A stretch of 60,185 nt of DNA, filler included, from Sphacelaria rigidula (taxonomy: Eukaryota): the NCBI GenBank assembly GCA_964200075.2. It is 4 parts of 4 records of this genome, joined end to end, with 100 filler letters (N's around TTAATTAATTAA, not from the genome) between each part and the next. Parts side by side here need not be neighbours in the genome. Positions count along the whole stretch, not along the records: positions 15,080 to 30,051 come from CAXNAA020001969.1; 3 more parts are not named here. One strand, written 5' to 3'. How positions within the stretch are numbered: the stretch's first letter is position 1; each line of letters starts with the position of its first letter. A program made the position numbers and the translations under genes. The notes under the pieces were generated by a model that was not told the origin of the DNA, made no database searches, and worked only from the letters and a program-made list of their open reading frames with translations. This document shows, piece after piece, positions 27,537 through 52,160 of the stretch.

Positions 27537-27965
27537 AACACGGGATTTTACAAGTTGTGGATGTCTTTTGGGGGGGGAAGGAAACCCGGAGGACTAAAAC
27601 CCTTGTATCCACACCAAATGTTCCAAGTATGCTCCTATTTTTTCACTTGATGGTAGCTATTGACAACTACTACACGACATACAAATTTGGATCTCAATTG
27701 CCGAAATGTCGGGGTCCTACGTGAGAAACCAATTTTGGCGTCTGATCGGACACCTGAAATCCTCCAAAAACGGTTCTTCACTTAGGACCCCAACATTTCG
27801 GTTATCGAAATCCAAATTTGTATGGTGTGTATAGTTGTCAATAGCTACCAGCAAGTGAAGAAAGGAAGCATACTCGGAAGATTTGGTGTGGATACGAAGA
27901 TTTTCAATTCTACGAGTTTTCATCCCCAAAAAAAGATCCATCCCCAGTTTGTAAAATCCCGTGTT
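27537..27965. mobile_element. AACACGGG fold-back MITE, copy 3
   Basis: AACACGGGATTTTACAA...TTGTAAAATCCCGTGTT; no clear TSD. Confidence 0.85.
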
Positions 27966-28506
27966 TTGTCTCAACACGCAATTACAGGTGCAATCTGCTG
28001 GTGATACACCTTGCCGCTGCGGGCGCTTGCGCTGGACACAAGTTCCGAAGCATGCCCGTGGCGAAAAGAAGATAATGGTACGGGCAGCATACTGACTTTT
28101 CTTTCTTCTTAACTTCTCTCGCTGCCATGCATGACGACAACTATACAAATATCTTCGGCGCAGTCTATCGAAGCATGACTTACAGAAGTCAGTGAGAAAC
28201 CAGAGACCTCATGATAATCCAGCCTTCAAAGATGAGAGAAAAAAAGCAAAATAACAGGATGCTTGAAACAATCTTACTCAAGATACACGTCGACCGCGCA
28301 ATGACAATCTACACACATGATTTGGCAGCCTCCGCCTCCCCAAACTATACTCACAATAAAAGGATTGTTCAATCGGAATTAGCAAAACGGATGTAAATCG
28401 CAAAGATTTGTACGACATTACGACCCGCGCAAAAGACACATATGTCGAAATAACACCATGTCCAACATCAGCCGGGAAACGAGCGTGCACGGATCATCTG
28501 ATCAAG

Positions 28507-30033
28507 CTATCTCCCTCGCAGGTGAGATAAGGCCGAAGGCACGCGACTAGAGGGGGCAGACACGTCCAACTCTAATTTCATGTCGATGTTCTCCCCTTCA
28601 GACATGATATCATCCCCCGCTGCCACATCAAATACCGGTTCCACCTGCACCGTCCTACGTAGCCGCTTCGTGTTCCTTCCACTTGCAATGCTGCTTCCGC
28701 AGCTCCGCACTCTGGTGCTGGTAGGGCCACCTTTCCTCATACTGTCCAAGCTGCTGGATTGCGCAGCGGCCAGTTTGCTGCCCGTTCTCACGCTCTCGGA
28801 AACAAGCGCAGGCGCAAGAGTCGCTTCAATTTTCGTCTTCGTGCGCGTCTCTGTCCCACCTGAAATGACCTCATCTGCCGCCGCTGCGCTTGCGGGCCAT
28901 CGCGAAGCAGCAGGCGGGGTGGTCGTAGATTTCGCACCCCGTCGGATAGCTCGGATGGCACGCGAGGTGTAAAAAGAACCAGCGGTGAGACCAGCACGGC
29001 TTGTGCTGCGAACGGCACCTGGCGGATGACTTGTGTCTTCACAATCTTCATCGATGCCGACCCCAGTCTTTCCCTCGATAAACTCGTCATATGGGCTATT
29101 TTCGTTTTGGTCATGTCCCACAGCATCAGACGGCATAACTAGGTCATATGCAACATGATGGCAGGTGTCCCCGTGCTCCTGCGCCCGGTTGGAATAACGC
29201 TGCGACGCGCATTCATTGCCGTTCACGGAGATCATCCCGCCGCAGGCATGTATGGCGCAGAACTCCGCCTTCTTGCCACCGATAGCACCAAACGATGCAC
29301 GCTTAGAGCAGCCCTGCTTGCCGCACATCTTCCTCACTACTTGGACCATGCCCGCCTGGGTGTGTGTGGCGCAGAACTCCGCCTTCTTGCCGGCGGCAGC
29401 ACCGAACGATGGATGTTCAGAGCAACCCTGCTTGCCGCACCGCTGGTTTTTTACATCCACCATGCCCGCCCGGGCGTGTGTGGCGCAGAACTCCGCCCTC
29501 TTACCACCAGCAGCACCGAACGATGGTTGTTTTGAGCAGCCCCGCTTGCCGCACATCTTCCTCACTACTTGGACCATGCCCGCCTGGGTGTGTGTGGCGC
29601 AGAACTCCGCCTTCTTGCCACCGGCAGCACCGAACGATGGTTGTTTAGAGCAACCCTGCTTGCCGCACCGCTGGTTTTTTACATCCACCATGCCCGCCCG
29701 GGCGTGTGTGGCGCAGAACTCCGCCCTCTTACCACCAGCAGCACCGAACGATGGTTGTTGAGAGCAGCCCTGCTTGCCGCACATCTTCCTCACTACTTGG
29801 ACCATGCCCGCCTGGGTGTGTGTGGCGCAGAACTCCGCCTTCTTGCCACCGGCAGCACTAAACGATGGATGTTCAGAGCAACCCTGCTTGCCGCACCGCT
29901 TGTTTTTCACATCCACCATGCCCACCCGGGCGTGTGTGGCGCAGAACTCCGCCTTCTTGCCACCGATAGCACCAAACGATGCACGCTTAGAGCAGCCCTG
30001 CTTGCCGCACATCTTCCTCACTACTTGGACCAT
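28507..30033 (-). CDS. EsV-1-7 cysteine-rich repeat protein (7 x 38-aa repeats plus low-complexity C-terminus); 5' end may extend into the gap
   Basis: Repeats C-x4-C-x4-SFG...AEFCATH...GMVDV match the EsV-1-7 motif of brown algae and phaeoviruses; 114/228-bp DNA periodicity; frame stays open up to the N-gap at 30052. Confidence 0.9.
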   Translation of the reverse strand: MVQVVRKMCGKQGCSKRASFGAIGGKKAEFCATHARVGMVDVKNKRCGKQGCSEHPSFSAAGGKKAEFCATHTQAGMVQVVRKMCGKQGCSQQPSFGAAGGKRAEFCATHARAGMVDVKNQRCGKQGCSKQPSFGAAGGKKAEFCATHTQAGMVQVVRKMCGKRGCSKQPSFGAAGGKRAEFCATHARAGMVDVKNQRCGKQGCSEHPSFGAAAGKKAEFCATHTQAGMVQVVRKMCGKQGCSKRASFGAIGGKKAEFCAIHACGGMISVNGNECASQRYSNRAQEHGDTCHHVAYDLVMPSDAVGHDQNENSPYDEFIEGKTGVGIDEDCEDTSHPPGAVRSTSRAGLTAGSFYTSRAIRAIRRGAKSTTTPPAASRWPASAAAADEVISGGTETRTKTKIEATLAPALVSESVRTGSKLAAAQSSSLDSMRKGGPTSTRVRSCGSSIASGRNTKRLRRTVQVEPVFDVAAGDDIMSEGENIDMKLELDVSAPSSRVPSALSHLRGR

Positions 30034-30462
30034 AGCTCGGAAGGGCGTCGTNNNNNNNNNNNNNNNNNNNNNNNNNNNNNNNNNNNNNNNNNNNNTTAAT
30101 TAATTAANNNNNNNNNNNNNNNNNNNNNNNNNNNNNNNNNNNNNNNNNNNNCGAGGAGCTTCCTCTCTGTCGTTGCTTCTCTCTCTGGTGATATCGTCAT
30201 CGACACGCGTGTACACCGCATTTCGTTGGGTGCACCTAGCCAGAGTTGCTTAAACCTTGGACCGCGGTGCCCGTAGTCCATCTCGACCGCGCGTGTGCTT
30301 TGTTCAAGTGAATATCGATGCCGATTCATCAGGTGACCTACTCTCGCGGTCTAACGGGTAACTCCTGCTGCGGAGGTTTGGGAAGGAAGATACTTTCGCT
30401 CTGTCTTACTCTTTCGTATCTTCCCTGCAATAGAGAATGGGACTTCAACCTCATTTTTTGTT

Positions 30463-32058
30463 TCAACCCCAAAAATTAGGATCGGCTGTTTCTCGATCAT
30501 TTTGCACCGGCTTCAAATTTTCGAGCTTTTCAGCTGAAATCTGGAACTGATATTGTGGCTTAGCAATTTGTAACTCAGGGTTTTCTGGGACTTTACGGCA
30601 TATCGGCGCAAGCAACGGCTTGATTTCTGCTTCCTGTCGCTTTTCAAACGCAAACAGCCATGAGAGAGTGTCCGGTATAACATGAAGTTTCCCCGGTTTA
30701 TGTTTGACCGTGAAATCATACGATTGCAATGCGATCGCCCATCGGGTCAACATATTACTTGTATCCTGCATCGCATATAAATATCGAAGAGCGGCATGGT
30801 CTGTTGCACACGTAAAGTGACGTCCCCAGAAAAAAGCTCTGAAATGTTGAATCGCTAGTACGACCGCGTAACATTCTTTCATGGTGGGTGAATAGCGGGC
30901 GTGGGCGTCGTTGAAACGTTGACTGAAGTATGCTACGATTACCTCGTCTTCGCCTTTCCTTTGGGAAACGGAAGCCCCGGCCCCACGGTCTGAAGCATCA
31001 ACGTTTATGATGAATTCTTTCGTGAAATCTGGAAAATGAAGGACGGGTGCCTCAGTCATCATTTTTTTAATTTTCTCGAAGGCTTCATCATGTTCAGTAT
31101 TCCAGAGTTTCGACACTTGTTTCGCCGCTCCTTTTTTTGTGAGATCTATCAGTGGTGCTATGGTTGTAGCCAAGTCTGGTATGAATTTCCGTACGAAATT
31201 TATTGTACCGAGTACTGATCTCAACTCTTTGATGTTGGTGGGTTTCGGCAAGTCGAGGATAGCTTTTATTCTTTCATCACTCACTCTGATGCCATCTGCG
31301 GACAGTACATGACCCAAATATTTGACTTGCTTTGGACCAAATTGGATTTTTGCCGGCTTTAGTGTAAGGCCTGCTGTTTGCAGTGCTTGGAACGTGCTTT
31401 CTAGTAGGGTGAGATGACTCTCCCAGCTTGATGAACAACAAATAATGTCCATATACACTAGTAAGCCACTCATAGGTCCGAAGTGTGCAAATGCTAGTGC
31501 CGTTATGCGTGAGAAGATAAAGGGTGAACACGCTAAAGCAAAAAATGGCAACCGGTTGAACACCTATTTCCCTCTTTGAGTTACAAACGCTGTTTTCTCT
31601 TTTTCGCTTTCCGCTACTGGTATCTGGTGGAACGCACTTTGTACATCGCAAACTGTTATGAATTTCGCCCCCGCTACTGTATCTATGTGACTTTCGATAG
31701 CTGGCATGGGCCATGATTTGCGAATCAAGTTTTTCTTTATCGCTGCTCGATAATCTACGCAAAATCGTGCTGTTCCGTCTGCTTTTGCGACTATTGTAAC
31801 CGCTGATCCCCAGGGGCTTGGGCGTTGTTCGACTATACCATCGTTTTCCATTTGGTCGACGCATTTGTCGATTGCGTCTTGCACTCTGGGGTTTGCTCTA
31901 TATGGTGCTCCGTCTACCGGCTGAGTCCCAGATTTGAGCGGAAAGCGTGCTTCGTCTAACGTACAACAGCCCAACTCCTGCGGATGAAGTGAAAACACAG
32001 AACGGTATTTTGCGCGAAGATCCAGTATTTGGGAGCATTGTTCCGGGGGAAAAGTCAT
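30463..32058 (-). pseudogene. Gypsy RT-RNase H
   Basis: SPWGSAVTIVAKADGTARFCVDYR, DVQSAFHQIP, VYMD(D deleted)II, YLGH, VDASDRGAG, TDHAAL, RWAIALQSYDF; in-frame stop at 31564. Confidence 0.9.
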
Positions 32059-32207
32059 ATTTTCGAAAGCTTTGCGTAAAGCTGGACGTTATTCCTCTTT
32101 CGCATTTCTTCTCTCTGACACCTTATTTCCCGCCATTGTACTGACTATAGCTGGTTTTGTTTCTCGTACTGGGGTGATATAGCCTAAAACCGTATTACGT
32201 TTCAGGT

Positions 32208-32906
32208 TCACATGTCGATTCTACGGATTTGCGATTTGTACCATTGCCGTCTTATTTGTTGCCGACCATACGATGATGCGCGTGAACGCTTGGGGTACAT
32301 CGCGGTTGATCGAATGCCTTCTTCGGTTATAATGCGTGGCTCTACGACGGCTGTTGTTGTTCTTGACGGGTTATTTTCCGTTTCTACTAATGCGGCCATC
32401 TCACTCTGCGGGGGCACGTTGCATTTCTTCGTGAGAATAACTGAAACAGCGTTAGAACAGGCCATACTGACTACAGAACAATGTGCCGTTCCGCGGTGTG
32501 TTGTATTTTGTGCAGGCCGTTGTTTTCGATGCGATGCTTTGATTTTTATACTAGAATCGCGGAATGTTAGCTCTTTCGCTTGCCAGTCGAGTATAGCTTG
32601 GAAAGCACTCATAACGGAATTGTCCAGTAAAAGGCGATCCGGTCCTAGATTAGGTAATACAAACGCTTCTACTGGCAGGGTTTTTATCCCTAACGTAAGT
32701 TCAAAACGTATGAAACCTAGAATTTTCATGGGAGAGCCGTCCGCACTCCTGAAGTCTATCGATCCTGGCGATACTGGCTTTATATCAGCTGCCATTATGG
32801 CCGGGTGTTCATCGATGAACTTTTTGCTGATACAGGGCACATCTGCTGCGGAATCAGTTGTGATTTTTTCAGCGGGGGAGCCGTTTACTCTGGCTGTGAC
32901 TCTCAC
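32208..32906 (-). pseudogene. Gypsy aspartic protease region
   Basis: ITTDSAADVPCIS (DSG-like), SADGSPMKILG, LLLDN. Confidence 0.75.
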
Positions 32907-33355
32907 ACGGGCTGATGCACAGGACAGTGCTAAAGGCGCAACTGTATATCTGGCAAGCGAAGATGCGTTGTAAGAGCCATAACAGGGATCATTTAGGATC
33001 GGGTTTGAAAACGAAGATCGGCGTTTCGACTTTTGTTTTTCTGCAATGAGTTACTCACAAAAGCCGCCTGCGGAGCTAAAAATATAAGTTGCGTCTGTTC
33101 TACGCATTCGCTATTTGTACTCTGCTCTCTGCTGCTATGCTCCTGCTCGTGCTCCTCCCGTGCATGGTTGACCTCTACCCGAGACCTCTTACGTGTTCTC
33201 TGTGGTTGGTCTGCCGTACTGTCAGAAAAATGAAACTCTCCCATCTTACGAGCCAGAGGGTTGACGATTTCGCGTCCTTCTGTTTCCCTCGATTTTATAC
33301 GTAAGGATTTACCGTTTCTGCCCTGATCAGACGAGGGGTCTTCTCTTGGGCGCCT

Positions 33356-35173
33356 TCACGGGTTGTACTTTTTTGCAAACTCTACATGGCTCTGCATATG
33401 GCGGCAATCCGCTGTCTCGTGTGTGTTCTTGTACCTGCATGGTGCGTACTCACAACGGACCGATTTCTTCGTTTTACCGCTCAGCTGCTTGTCGTTGGAT
33501 GTACTCTTATCGTTACTGTGTTTGAAGCGTACTTTTTTCAACTCTCCCCCTGATCTATTCGCGCTCTTGTCTCTGCTAGCAGACCGTTTCTGTGCTCTCC
33601 CTCTCTCTCCTTTGATCGCTTTTCATTGCGACTGAAGATCCGTAAGGATTGCGCCATGATCGGCTATCATTTCCGCTAGCTGTGGACGTAGGGAATTTAC
33701 AGTTGCGGCCGAGACATGGGGAGTGTCTCCAGTTTGGTTTGGCCATGTGCGGAGGTTGTTTTGTTCGTATTTTTTCGCTCGTGCTGTCGCAGTTTGGAAG
33801 TCGAGCGTACTATCTTCTCTCACCATTTCAACTCTGATATGGGGTTTGAGCCCGGTCTCAAATGCTGCTGTTGTGATCACGTCTATTATGAAGCGAAGCG
33901 TGTCGTGGCCAGGAAATTTCACCCGCACGGCCTCGGTCACGAATCTGTCCATCGAAGTCGTACACTCCAGTGCATAGTCGTTTACGTTCTGATCTTGTTT
34001 CTGTTTCAGATCGGCTATCGCACGGGCTAACAGGGCTAGTTGGTTTGGTGGAGAGAAGCGATGGGTGTAGGCCGCTACCCATTCTGTCCATGTTTTCGGG
34101 GCGATGGGTGCGGTATCTTCTCCTCTCGATTTGAGGTCTTGCAGTACAGCTAGTGGGCACCACTCTACTTTTCCGCTTCCGAGAGGGGTGTATAGTTTTT
34201 CTGCTGACCCTCTGAGGATAAGTGGTAAGTGTTTTATGGCGTGCCGTTGTACTGTGGGTTTTGTGCAATCGTCAGGGGCCTGAATCCTAAGTCGATTGAG
34301 AAACGCATCAAGAATTGCTGGCACATCCTCACTCCGTTTTCTTCCTAGGATTAACGTTGATGGAAGATCCGATTGTTTCATCGAAAAAAATGAGTTCTCA
34401 TGGTGCTACAATGGCTTGTAGATGGCGGAGTCAGCACTGAACTAGACAGAGGCTATATGTTGTGGCTGTTTTCTTGTACGTTAGTGACGTTACTGAGGCT
34501 TGCTGGCGGATCTAACGCCAACGTCTCTGAGTTCTCTGTGGATTGGATCGGCGTAGTGTTAGACAGTTCGATCTCGAAATTATCGACTGGATCATTGACA
34601 CTACCTGGGGTTCACTCGTGTTGTTTTGTGGCATCGTACTGTTACCTTGATGTCCTATTTCCGATGCTACTGGGTTGCTCGATTTCGATACCTGTAAAAC
34701 TCCCTGCTCTTGCGGTACCGAGAACCCCAAAGCTTGCATCACCCACGGAGCTGGCTCCGTACCTTCCCCGTCGCTCCTCTCCAACACCCTATATGCGAGC
34801 TCTGCTGCCTTTTCTTTGATGGTGAGTTGTGATGTAGGGGTTGGTGTAGAGGATGAGGATGGATTGGTGGGGTAGCGAAGCACATCAAACCTACCGGTGG
34901 ACACCTGACGGATATCGGTGCTCCGCTCAGAGTCATCAGAGTTGTCGCTGTCGCTTTCCCCCTCGTGGCTATACGGGGTTTGAGCGGGCAGGGTTGTGTC
35001 GGCCGGCGCAGGTACTACTGACTGTGCTGCGCCTCTAGACTCTGCCGCTTTCGCCGCCGAGGTGGAAGCTGATGGCGTGACGGCCGCGGTTGGATGCTGG
35101 AGGGTCTTCGCGGTGACCCTTCCCTGAGTAGTTGTTCTGGTGGGTTTTTTGTGCGCGGATTTCTTCCTCGGCA
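33356..35173 (-). pseudogene. Gypsy gag (frameshifted)
   Basis: TWTEWVAAYTHRF, LKQKQDQNVNDY, FETGLKPHIR; Cys/His cluster CEYAPCRYKNTHETADC. Confidence 0.7.
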
Positions 35174-43453: not shown

Positions 43454-44815
43454 CGTAGGGATCTCAAGAAACAGTTTTTGGGATACACACAAAAATAAAG
43501 CAATAGAAAAGGAGGGTAAGGCACAGATGTAGGCAAGATGGACGTGATCCTCGAAGACTCACCTAGATACTAGGATTGAGAGATGTAACAAAATTTGACT
43601 GAACGGTCGACGAGGGAAAGGGACTGCTGAACCCCTTTCGCGATAAAAAAAGGCAAGCACCACAAAAGAAAGGGGTAGAACTGAAACAAATTAATTAAAT
43701 AAAAATTAAGTCCTGTGTTGGCCTTCCTCCTGTGTGACCCCGGCTTGTGCGCCCACATATACCGAAAGGTATAGACCGGCGTCTAGAAGAGATGGGATGA
43801 CAATACACACACACCCTGATGAACGTGATCGTACTAAACGTGGAATATGCAGGAAAAGTATGGAAGGGGAACGTGAAGTTGAAGAAGTTGGAAAATGTAC
43901 AGATGGCAGCAGCTAAGAAAATACTTGGGTGCTCGAAAACGACGAGTGACACAGCTTTGAGTTGGGAATCTACGAAGTGCCCACTTAAAACAGAGACATG
44001 AGGACATTGAGATGGCAATATAGCGTCAAGAAATAGCAGAGATAGAGACTGCCAGCGATAGTTGATAGGGCTGTATGGAAGAAAATGACGAAAGGTCAAG
44101 CTAGAATAAGGTGGGATAGCGAAGTCGAGAAGGTACAGAAGGGCATAGGAGAAAACCAAGAATACTGTGCATAGGTGAAGGGGCGGGTATAAGACAGAAG
44201 TGAAATGCATGATAGAATTGAGGGAAATAAAAATACTCAGACGCAAGAAGACGGGAAAGAACACCTGAAGATACACGGGGTGTTGAGAGAGGGGATAGGG
44301 ATGAAAGCATATCTGTATGGTTCGATGTACGCGGCGAAAAATTGAAACTGCGGCTCCGGGTGGGGGACCTGGACCTGCCAGAAAGAAGAAAGGGATATAC
44401 CAGTAGTATGATAGTCGAGGGGAGAGGAAGTAGATGCACAGAAATGCCCCTTTGGCAAGCAAGAGAGAGCTTATATAGTGGTAAAATGTAAGCAATACAA
44501 GAAGAAACGAGACGTGCTAGTGGGGGAAATGCGGGACGTGAATGAAGGTGACATGAAATCGTTTGATGCACTAGACAGGGAGAAAACGATGGCTATCCTA
44601 GGAGATAGATGGTGGCCACAGATGGCGAAACAGGACGTGGATAAGATACAACATGTGTCAAATGTTCTTCTCATGTATGGAAGAAGCGTGATGAGCACCG
44701 GAATGTTGGAGGTGTCTTTTTCAGGAGGAGGAACGGTGCTCTGTCTCGAAAGGGGTGCGTGGTCAATGGTCAAACGACTAAGGCAAGTAAAAAATGAGTT
44801 TCCCCCCCTCCCCTA
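43454..44815 (+). mobile_element. 5'-truncated poly(C)-tailed LINE with 12-bp TSD
   Basis: LINE C-terminal peptides (NVIV..VEYAGKVW, ILGDRWWP); common 3' tail; CCCCATTACCCT at 43442-43453 and 44816-44827. Confidence 0.8.
43587..43814 (-). mobile_element. Short interspersed repeat nested in the LINE (related copies at 55836-55940 and, weakly, 11745-11830)
   Basis: CCTTTCGGTATATGTGGGCGCAC.AGCCGGG..CACACAGGA.GAAGGCCAACACAGGA; interrupts the LINE frame HLDTRI.RC|.LMNVIV. Confidence 0.7.
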
Positions 44816-49807: not shown

Positions 49808-52160
49808 TCATCTGTCAGCATCAGGTTCTGTCATGGCTTCTTTCGCTGTCGACGGTTCCTGTGGTGCAGTGACGATTCCGCCTGCGAGCATGCAGAATGC
49901 GCCCTTGTCCTGATCTTGTAGAAGGGTGGCGAGGAGATTTTTGTCATCAGAACTGCTGCCGTCAGAACTTTTAAAACGTTGCTGTGCGTTGTCCCCTCGA
50001 TGCCGTTGCGCCAGTCGACTGGACGTGCGCAGTCCACTATCCGGAGAGGAGCGCTTCGGTGCTGTTGAGTCCTGTGGTGGCCGGTCATAGTTGAAAGGCT
50101 TTCCTGTCAGCCTCTCAGATGGGGTCTCGCCTCCGAGGTACTCGTGGGGCATCTCTGCGGTCTTGATTGCTGCGTCCTCCACAGCGAAGAACCAGTAGTC
50201 CTCTCCGGGTCCCGCTTTCACCACTTGACTGCGTGCTATCCTCATCACTTGTTGAATTGCACGTTCAGCAATTCCATTATTCTGCGGTGTTCTTGGCGGT
50301 GAGGAGCGCCACTTGATGCCGCGATTAGTCAGCACGCGTTGAAATTTGACTGATAAGTTCCCCAGCGCCGTCTCCGCTGATGCATTTGATGGCCACTCCC
50401 TTTTGGGCCATCTCGTCGATATAGGGTCCCGTGGCGTCAGTGGCAGCATCTCGTGTCTTGACTCCAACGACGTGCTTGTCTCAACTGGCCTCGTCCACGA
50501 AAAGCCGAAAATATTTCATGCCCGTGACATCGGCGTGAAAAGGCCCTTCAAAATCAGTGTGCACGACTTCACCCGGTGCTTTGGGACTCCCGCCGCCGCG
50601 GCCGTAGCTGAGCGCCTCGGACTTGCATTTCTTGCAGACGCTGCAGCGCATCTCGGACGCCACCGTGGTAGCGGTTACATCGATCAGCCCAAGCTTCTCG
50701 AGGTGTTTTTGGCAGCCGCATCGATGTGTCCTAAGGTGTCGTGCCAGTCCTTCAATGTGAGGCGCTGCTTCTTGTTTCCGAACGAAGCGTGCGTCGACGC
50801 CGCACGTTTGCCATCTCCCTGCAGCGATGCTGACAGTGCCAGGAACCCTTTATTCTCGGCCAGGGGGATCTCCGGTCCATCCTTTCTGAACCGAAGGTAA
50901 CTCTCCTTCCTGTCTGAATCCACGAATTCTCCTCCGTCACGCCGAATCGTTCCGGTACTCAGCAGCCGGCAAGGTAGCCCAGGGACCCAAAGTACGTCCT
51001 TCACCGTGACCTTTACCGGAGCCTCCTTTCTCCGAGCGTCCACGTGCAATGTGATCTCTCCCATTGCCAGTGCCTGCAGCTGTCCCTTTTTCCGAAATGT
51101 ACAGCTTCGCTTGACCATACGTGTCTTTCTGAGATCCTGTTTCCAGGGAGTCATGTGGACATTCGCTCCCGAGTCGCAGAGAATCGACACCCCTGAGTCA
51201 CTGTTGGTCGACGTGCACATGCATACTACTCGCTCATCTTCGACTACCACGTCCATCGTCATGAATGCCTGCGGTCTGTCCTCCCTCACATTACGTTTGC
51301 CGTTTTGTGGAGGAAGTGGGGACGTTTGTGCGGGGCTCAACCCCGGCGGTCGTTTAGCCGGAGAATCCGTTTTTCATCAAGGTAGGAGCGACACTCCCGC
51401 TACCTATGATTTCGCTTCAAACAGTAGGCGCAATGATTGCTTTCGAGCCTCGAGCCAGTTCTGTTGCCGTCAGTTCCCGATTGAAACGCTACTACTGCCT
51501 CATCGCGGCGTTCCATGTCAGACGTTAGATATGCTGATGGTGCTACGAATGCCGTTTTTAGCTCATCGTACGTCATACCTGGTTGTGTTGTTAGCTGGAT
51601 GAATACTTGTGGAAGCGCCTCCTTGATTCCGAGTAAGAAGGCTGCCCTCTTCGTCTTGTCGGCTTTGGCGTTTCCAAGCGCTTCGAATTCCCCCCAGATG
51701 GTGTCCAGCTTCACCATAAAATCTGCTGGTTCTTCTGCAGAATTGCATTGGAGACCCCGCAGTCTTCGTTCCAATACAAGTAGTTGCACAGGTCGCTCGT
51801 CCTGTGCACGTCCTCCACAGATCCGTTCCATCTCCAGCCAGGCTTCCAGGCCGTCGGGGTTGCCGCCGTGCTCGCATCGTGCGACGATGGTTGCGGCTGA
51901 CCCTTTCGTAGCATGTGCCAAGAGGAACTATTAGGACTGTATACTGCGTTGGTGGGTTTCGTACGCCCTACGCTGGTCGAGTGTTGTGGTCGCTGTCGGA
52001 ACGACCGATGTGGTGTAATCCGGTCGCAGCAGGGGGTATAGTCCCTTTCTCCCCACGTACCCAACGAGGGAAAGTCTCTATGCGTCCCATGTTTCTTGCA
52101 AGTGCCTACGAGCGCCCGTCCAGACTGGTAACTTGCATGAACCTGCCTCCATACTCCTCG
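49808..52160 (-). pseudogene. Copia gag-protease-integrase (frameshifted)
   Basis: DGLEAWLEM (gag), CAYCLKRNH (zinc knuckle), ILCDSGANVHMT (PR), WHDTLGH + CSVCKKCK, VHTDFEGP, TPQNNGIAER (IN), EPSTAKEAM. Confidence 0.9.

Follow-up and report, generated by a model that had tools for sequence, protein, structure and literature searches.

The EsV-1-7 family (PF19114), which includes the Ectocarpus gene IMMEDIATE UPRIGHT (IMM), is built of the same repeat as the gene considered here. According to the accessible parts of the published accounts, the family has expanded in brown algae to 95-335 genes per genome and may represent a novel zinc finger (bioRxiv 10.1101/2024.02.19.579948), and EsV-1-7 genes make up the largest orthogroup in brown algal genomes (bioRxiv 10.64898/2026.04.27.720984). 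The family, its brown-algal expansion and the label "possible novel zinc finger" are therefore already in print (also PMC7457493, PMC12993054). Neither a ligand nor site-specific selection nor a fusion to a nuclease is reported in the accessible text of these accounts, and the literature examined, so far as its text is accessible, gives EsV-1-7 genes, IMM included, no molecular function. One further paper (PMC10112911) has IMM only in its reference list. A literature search, with subscription papers mostly outside its scope, likewise returned no report of site-specific selection or nuclease fusion in EsV-1-7 proteins.

The array in the window

The gene lies within the window, by which is meant the whole stretch of 60,185 nucleotides of Sphacelaria rigidula DNA that was analysed. 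On the minus strand a frame is open from 30051 to 28507 and encodes 514 residues, which include seven repeats of 38 amino acids and then a tail of 242. The features are these:

28507 to 29235, minus strand: low-complexity tail of 242 amino acids plus stop codon, common to about 75 paralogous contigs, without nuclease motif
28570 to 28581, minus strand: MKLE, a terminal psi-K-x-E motif of SUMO-acceptor-like type; of 54 tails, 98% keep its K and 93% its E
28654 to 28668, minus strand: KRLRR, an NLS-like basic motif; K, R, R and R kept in 87-94% of 54 subfamily tails
29236 to 30033, minus strand: seven tandem EsV-1-7 repeats of 114 nt in alternating A and B units (translation, TRF, Pfam)
29983 to 29985, minus strand: codon 17 of repeat 1, the position that diversifies family-wide, recurring every 114 nt
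30052 to 30151, no strand: gap in the assembly, with linker; on its upstream side repeat 1 is only 18 nt from the contig end

The initial annotation had described seven EsV-1-7 repeats on alternating QVVRKM and DVKN.R units, with the triplets KRA, EHP, QQP, KQP, KQP, EHP and KRA following GCS. Translation reproduces the units and every one of the triplets, TRF finds tandem periods of 114 and 228 nt, and PF19114 matches seven stretches (E 7e-97), at 317 bits against a gathering cut-off of 25. The four residues spaced C-x4-C-x16-C-x2-H are kept in 7/7 repeats, and the net charge per repeat runs from +2 to +7. The feature is real, and it is a member of a known family. The scaffold is less constant than was supposed, since the A and B units differ at columns 3, 5, 6, 8, 35 and 36. 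Variation within units is clustered after GCS, as had been claimed: with the decayed end of repeat 7 left out, codons 16-18 hold 7 of the 22 variable nucleotides (scan-corrected p=0.012), and codon 17 reads R, H, Q, Q, Q, H and R from the first repeat to the last. The presence of KQP on both unit types had been held to imply shuffling or conversion. Only two informative bases lie behind it, so the window array is compatible with conversion without implying it; the claim does stand across the family, by the recombination tests given below.

The array starts 18 nt from the end of its contig, beside a gap of 100 nt, which means that the 5' end of the gene is missing. The lost part was sought beyond the gap and elsewhere and was not found. 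Mis-assembly of the array is not indicated by sequencing depth. Run X1, possibly the source data of the assembly itself, gives about 2.0x and 3.2x the single-copy depth for pieces that the assembly holds 2.0x and 3.1x; runs X3 and X4 fit less well, at about 1.3x and 3.6x for the 2-copy piece. One run guessed to be RNA covers 28163-29282; it may be DNA, and no run is recorded as RNA.

Repeated elements lie in the neighbouring DNA. A MITE-like, high-copy foldback of about 430 nt (27537-27965), with nested inverted arms and very high summed depth, begins some 540 nt beyond the gene's stop codon. Past the gap, and on a different contig from the gene, a fragmented retrotransposon, which I take to be Ty3/Gypsy-like, occupies 30463-34405 on the minus strand, with Pfam matches to gag, RT and RNase H in separate frames. 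Remnants of another, presumably Copia-like, are found at 49808-51373, also on the minus strand, where Pfam gives Pol_BBD and a weak integrase match. An interspersed repeat of about 1 kb (43855-44814) has also been inserted upstream of several EsV-1-7 paralogues, with 74-77% identity.

A family of arrays in one genome

The window locus is an ordinary, 5'-incomplete member of its family, and its interest lies in the pattern that emerges at the level of the family. A first look at the Sphacelaria rigidula genome (244 Mb) gave 4,575 candidates, of which 150 were scored, and the tail alone as query gave 79 matches. Among named proteins, the nearest relatives come from brown algae, and most are labelled Sphacelaria rigidula; the closest paralogue of the window array (G000:C5290) has 11 repeats. 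Arrays are present in 146/146 fetched contigs, with 2,029 repeats in all (median 13 per contig, maximum 36), and the genome holds at least 146 related genes; because the contigs were picked from hit lists, canonical repeats and the window's own subfamily are over-represented in the sample. In 1,724 cases neighbouring repeats are spaced at exactly 38 residues, and the C/C/C/H residues are present in 96-97% of the repeats, which are basic (mean charge +3). Frameshifts or interruptions affect 33 of the 146 arrays.

Members of the subfamily have kilobases of upstream non-coding DNA in common, which implies that they spread as DNA duplications. Carriage by a coding mobile element gains no support from the shared upstream DNA, in which the 8 loci listed have no obviously conserved ORF. 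The 16 paralogues inspected have a start codon directly at the array, where translation appears to begin unless spliced exons lie upstream, and no conserved N-terminal effector was seen in them. Many subfamily paralogues (L069, L070, L091, L165 and others) have a (CAG)n run about 60 nt upstream of the array, before the start codon. For brown algae, the accessible text of one account mentions an upstream motif CAGCAG (bioRxiv 10.64898/2026.04.27.720984).

Repeats within an array also exchange parts. A PHI-type test detects sub-repeat recombination at p<0.05 in 67 of 128 arrays, and incompatibility climbs with distance from 0.33 to 0.44. This is the shuffling that had been read, on thinner evidence, from the window array.

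Beyond the repeats, the tail is the only other part of the gene in view. By consensus pattern, its two conserved motifs are NLS-like (KRLRR) and SUMO-acceptor-like (MKLE). Over 54 subfamily tails, mean conservation is 59%, as against 87-98% at the two motifs. Of 104 long tails, 102 contain the psi-K-x-E pattern (shuffled mean 9.9) and 70 the NLS-like motif (shuffled 3.0), counts that are not independent, because paralogues share ancestry. The tail as a whole is near neutral, with dN/dS of 0.94.

Selection at fixed positions

If the arrays were reading something, one would look for variation at fixed places in the repeat, and this had been predicted for the triplet after GCS. Over the 2,029 repeats, entropy is highest at position 17, the middle of the triplet (3.34 bits), followed by 5, 6, 8, 11 and 33, while position 16 is mostly T or K and position 18 is Pro in 74%. 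Within arrays, columns 6 and 17 tie at a heterozygosity of 0.73; the most variable column is 17 in only 32 of 128 arrays and 6 in 46.

Selection was measured as dN/dS from 501 disjoint sibling pairs in 135 arrays, each repeat used at most once. No pair differed at more than 15 of 114 bases, the 34 repeats that contained stops were left out, and neutral rates were made context-dependent as a correction for CpG. Pairings that masked the test codons gave 2.6-2.8; these are biased upward and were set aside. At C9, C14, C31 and H34 dN/dS is 0.04-0.05, the strong constraint on the C-C-C-H residues that had been expected. At position 17 it is 1.66 (95% 1.44-1.91; Bonferroni lower bound 1.27), at positions 5, 6 and 36 it is 1.36, 1.28 and 1.22, and over the repeat as a whole it is 0.65. 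Positions 16 and 18, at 0.69 and 0.67, are under purifying selection. The excess at position 17 recurs in each subset of arrays: 1.97 within the window's subfamily and 1.52 in the remainder, 1.68 in intact arrays and 1.80 in broken ones.

Three artefacts might produce such an excess. Hypermutable CpG is not its source: CpG and non-CpG transition rates are about the same, and 1.66 is the value after correction. Nor is synonymous constraint, since codon 17 has a normal synonymous rate (0.96 after CpG-context correction) and, in 22 paralogue pairs, synonymous divergence (0.178) is not below that of upstream non-coding DNA (0.149). Conversion is ruled out by 24 simulations with duplication and conversion in which dN/dS was capped at 1. 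Their maxima were 1.26 at position 17 and 1.42 at any site, against 1.75 observed at position 17 with the same estimator; positions 5 and 6 (1.59 and 1.53) lie only narrowly above the simulated range.

Position 17 is thus under diversifying selection, of moderate strength at a dN/dS of about 1.7. Variation is not uniform along the repeat, as the initial annotation had anticipated, and it exceeds neutrality at one fixed position. The "tri-residue" of that annotation dissolves, its outer members being conserved by selection and positions 5, 6 and 36 varying fast as well: what remains of it is a single hypervariable residue, 17, joined by another patch at 5/6.

There is a more modest view of these numbers. 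The array may be a largely non-specific basic clamp on DNA, its variable surface residues under weak or episodic selection, amplified by segmental duplication and turnover and not for new specificities. The near-neutral tail, the overall dN/dS of the repeat, the broken arrays and the copying of paralogues together with kilobases of upstream DNA all sit well with a clamp. It is harder to reconcile with a value at position 17 above that of every neutral-capped simulation. The arrays of giant viruses, described next, bear on the same point from both sides.

Predicted structure adds little to this. AlphaFold2 gave the array a pLDDT of 41 on the single sequence and 44 with an alignment of 119 rows. 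Searched with Foldseek, the low-pLDDT model returned EsV-1-7-like viral proteins at TM 0.14-0.27 (13 matches, E<=0.001) and nothing in the PDB, and a profile search of the PDB with the array alignment returned nothing at E<=0.001. The alternation of variable positions 17 and 19 with a conserved Pro and aromatic residue at 18 and 20 would be in keeping with a single face of an extended strand.

Viral arrays joined to a nuclease-like domain

Then there is the company that the repeats keep. Among the 120 best homologues listed, 85 have a C-terminal domain with the pattern PD..E[VIC]DExxH. The same is true of 73 of 80 IMG/VR loci, many of which carry a GVMAG name. In 82 sequences of this domain D, E, D, E and H are invariant, and these residues resemble the EDxHD motif of I-Bth0305I (PMC3239194). 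The domain has no significant match in Pfam, PHROG, NCBIfam or the PDB, where profile searches with its alignments returned nothing at E<=0.001. Atlas leads all fall under 0.9 (PvuRts1I-N 0.88, DUF559 0.85), and a Holliday-junction resolvase matches at E 2.1. The putative assignment to Vsr/EDxHD-like nucleases is based on the motif and on weak leads that converge. The nuclease motif occurs in 0 of 118 complete host tails, and a single protein query did not find the domain in the algal genome itself.

At the 50% cluster level, the domain's relatives number 5,133. Scanning 120 of the best 150 found 85 with EsV-1-7 repeats, 5 of C2H2 type (one of which also has EsV-1-7) and 29 with no family. In one protein, P0249, this nuclease-like domain is preceded by seven C2H2 fingers that TGERP-type linkers connect, from which it follows that a classical DNA-binding array and an EsV-1-7 array occupy the same slot. 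P0249 is in its own right a natural fusion of C2H2 fingers to a putative Vsr-like nuclease, a ZFN-like architecture. A third tandem repeat, of about 17-19 amino acids and unassigned in Pfam, fills the slot in P0134, P0145 and P0232 (pattern C-E-H-x-K...C-x2-C-G-G-S).

Selection on the viral arrays falls in part where it does in the host. In 52 non-redundant arrays, 25 of which supplied 50 pairs, position 17 has a dN/dS of 3.3, position 19 of 2.7 and position 6 of 2.6. The four ligand residues show zero non-synonymous changes in repeats that had been selected for intact ligands. Diversifying selection at a fixed position is thus common to the host arrays and to the viral arrays fused to the nuclease-like domain. 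That positions 6 and 17 independently exceed 1 in the viral arrays is a second difficulty for a non-specific clamp.

If the arrays read DNA, is there a code? The viral gene is found in 45 different neighbourhoods among the 60 loci for which both neighbours are available, as would be expected of a mobile gene. At three loci with the same two neighbour genes, the arrays have 8, 12 and 17 repeats and their residues differ, which disfavours a strict code for one fixed site. A TALE-like rule of one repeat to one base, as the initial annotation had in mind, becomes doubtful, and the wide differences at a single locus would suit a clamp. In favour of a code, seven viral loci keep position-specific series of residues such as GKRA-VIAQ-xSPS. 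These loci (L245, L247, L249-L251, L253 and L256), in which the G/NKRA, VIAQ and xSPS series recurs across several neighbourhoods, appear to be the best candidates for a fixed target site. Empty-site comparison for a viral target gave 1 candidate among the 60 loci. Weighing both sides, I find the clamp unlikely.

A second partner that acts on DNA is a Mariner transposase of Ectocarpus, which has acquired an EsV-1-7 domain at its N-terminus (PMC12477816). The nuclease and transposase fusions lend independent support to the nucleic-acid reader that had been predicted from the window array.

The nucleic acid might instead be RNA, read base by base as PPR and PUF repeats do, the arrays acting on viral or transposon transcripts. 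The repeats are basic and rich in Cys/His, and other CCCH fingers bind RNA. The spacing C-x4-C-x16-C-x2-H differs from that of TIS11-type CCCH fingers, a Pfam zf-CCCH match is absent, and both fused partners, the Vsr-like nuclease domain and the Mariner transposase, come from families that act on DNA. RNA as the ligand is, I think, very unlikely.

Or the array might not read nucleic acid at all. A variable surface that binds viral or parasite proteins, in the manner of an immune receptor (compare the ROCO-LRR and NB-ARC-TPR proteins of brown algae), would evolve in much the same way, and turnover, repeat shuffling and site-specific diversifying selection are found also in LRR/TPR receptors of Ectocarpus (PMC3341825). 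Against a receptor, a signalling domain is missing: Ectocarpus EsV-1-7 genes are described, in the accessible text, as without other Pfam domains (bioRxiv 10.64898/2026.04.27.720984). The repeats are basic, the tail has an NLS-like motif, the known fusion partners act on DNA, and a C2H2 array fills the same slot. A protein ligand seems quite improbable.

Because these repeats are joined in giant viruses to a domain predicted to cut DNA, the arrays are likely to be variable DNA readers, comparable to the zinc-finger arrays of animals. That arrays of the window type read DNA in a sequence-selective manner is the reading I favour, with moderate confidence.

A proposed model for the array and its tail

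I propose that the window gene would encode a nuclear, sequence-selective DNA-binding protein. One zinc ion is predicted to lie at the centre of each folded 38-residue repeat, and the preference for bases would be tuned by position 17 together with 5/6 (in viruses also 19). The repertoire would be renewed, as in KRAB-type genes, by gene duplication, gain and loss of repeats, recombination within them and positive selection, all of which are observed here. The array would correspond to the module that, in giant viruses, targets the Vsr/EDxHD-like nuclease fused to it. Algal copies instead carry the fast-evolving tail, with its conserved NLS-like and SUMO-like motifs, which may recruit chromatin regulators to bound sites.

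The sites themselves would most plausibly be transposons or integrated viruses. This is the weakest step, and silencing of transposons or viruses specifically I regard as a tentative suggestion, open to real doubt. More speculative still, and on balance unlikely, is the full picture in which brown algae independently evolved a surveillance like that of KRAB-ZNF proteins from the DNA-targeting array of a giant-virus nuclease, with hundreds of arrays reading transposon or viral DNA through decodable residues 5/6, 17 and 19 and using a SUMO-dependent tail to silence it. Since IMM is a developmental gene, and a conserved one, not every member of the family can be a gene of defence.

Should the arrays prove to be DNA readers, they would be a convergent counterpart, in an independently multicellular lineage, of the zinc-finger repertoires of animals, and possibly a new modular DNA-binding scaffold. 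Should the surveillance be real too, the scaffold would be programmable and the viral form a natural ZFN-like enzyme. With the evidence from the family, a repeat that had lacked an explanation becomes a candidate modular reader of DNA that can be put to the test. That evidence names residues to mutate, a likely class of ligand and a built-in assay, the nuclease-fused viral form, which makes the function directly testable.

Comparison with known repeat proteins

Three known systems invite comparison. TAL effectors share with EsV-1-7 arrays near-identical tandem repeats that vary at a fixed position. In the window family, unlike TAL effectors, variation is spread over two or three patches and the repeats have Cys/His ligands; a one-to-one code of one residue per base is not supported by the arrays compared.

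EDxHD homing endonucleases resemble the viral relatives only, in which repeated modules at the N-terminus precede the C-terminal PD..ExDExxH domain. I-Bth0305I uses motifs of the NUMOD type and lies within a group I intron (PMC3239194). The window gene, unlike these enzymes, is without a nuclease.

Closest in manner of evolution are the KRAB-ZNF and FiNZ-ZNF genes of metazoans, with hundreds of paralogues, arrays that are long and uninterrupted, birth and death of genes and positive selection (PMC10547256). EsV-1-7 arrays likewise show positive selection at fixed positions of the repeat together with birth and death. They differ in their parts. The window gene has no C2H2 match in Pfam, and hence no such finger with a TGEKP-type linker; in its place is a repeat of 38 amino acids with C-C-C-H residues, and the candidate effector is the C-terminal tail.
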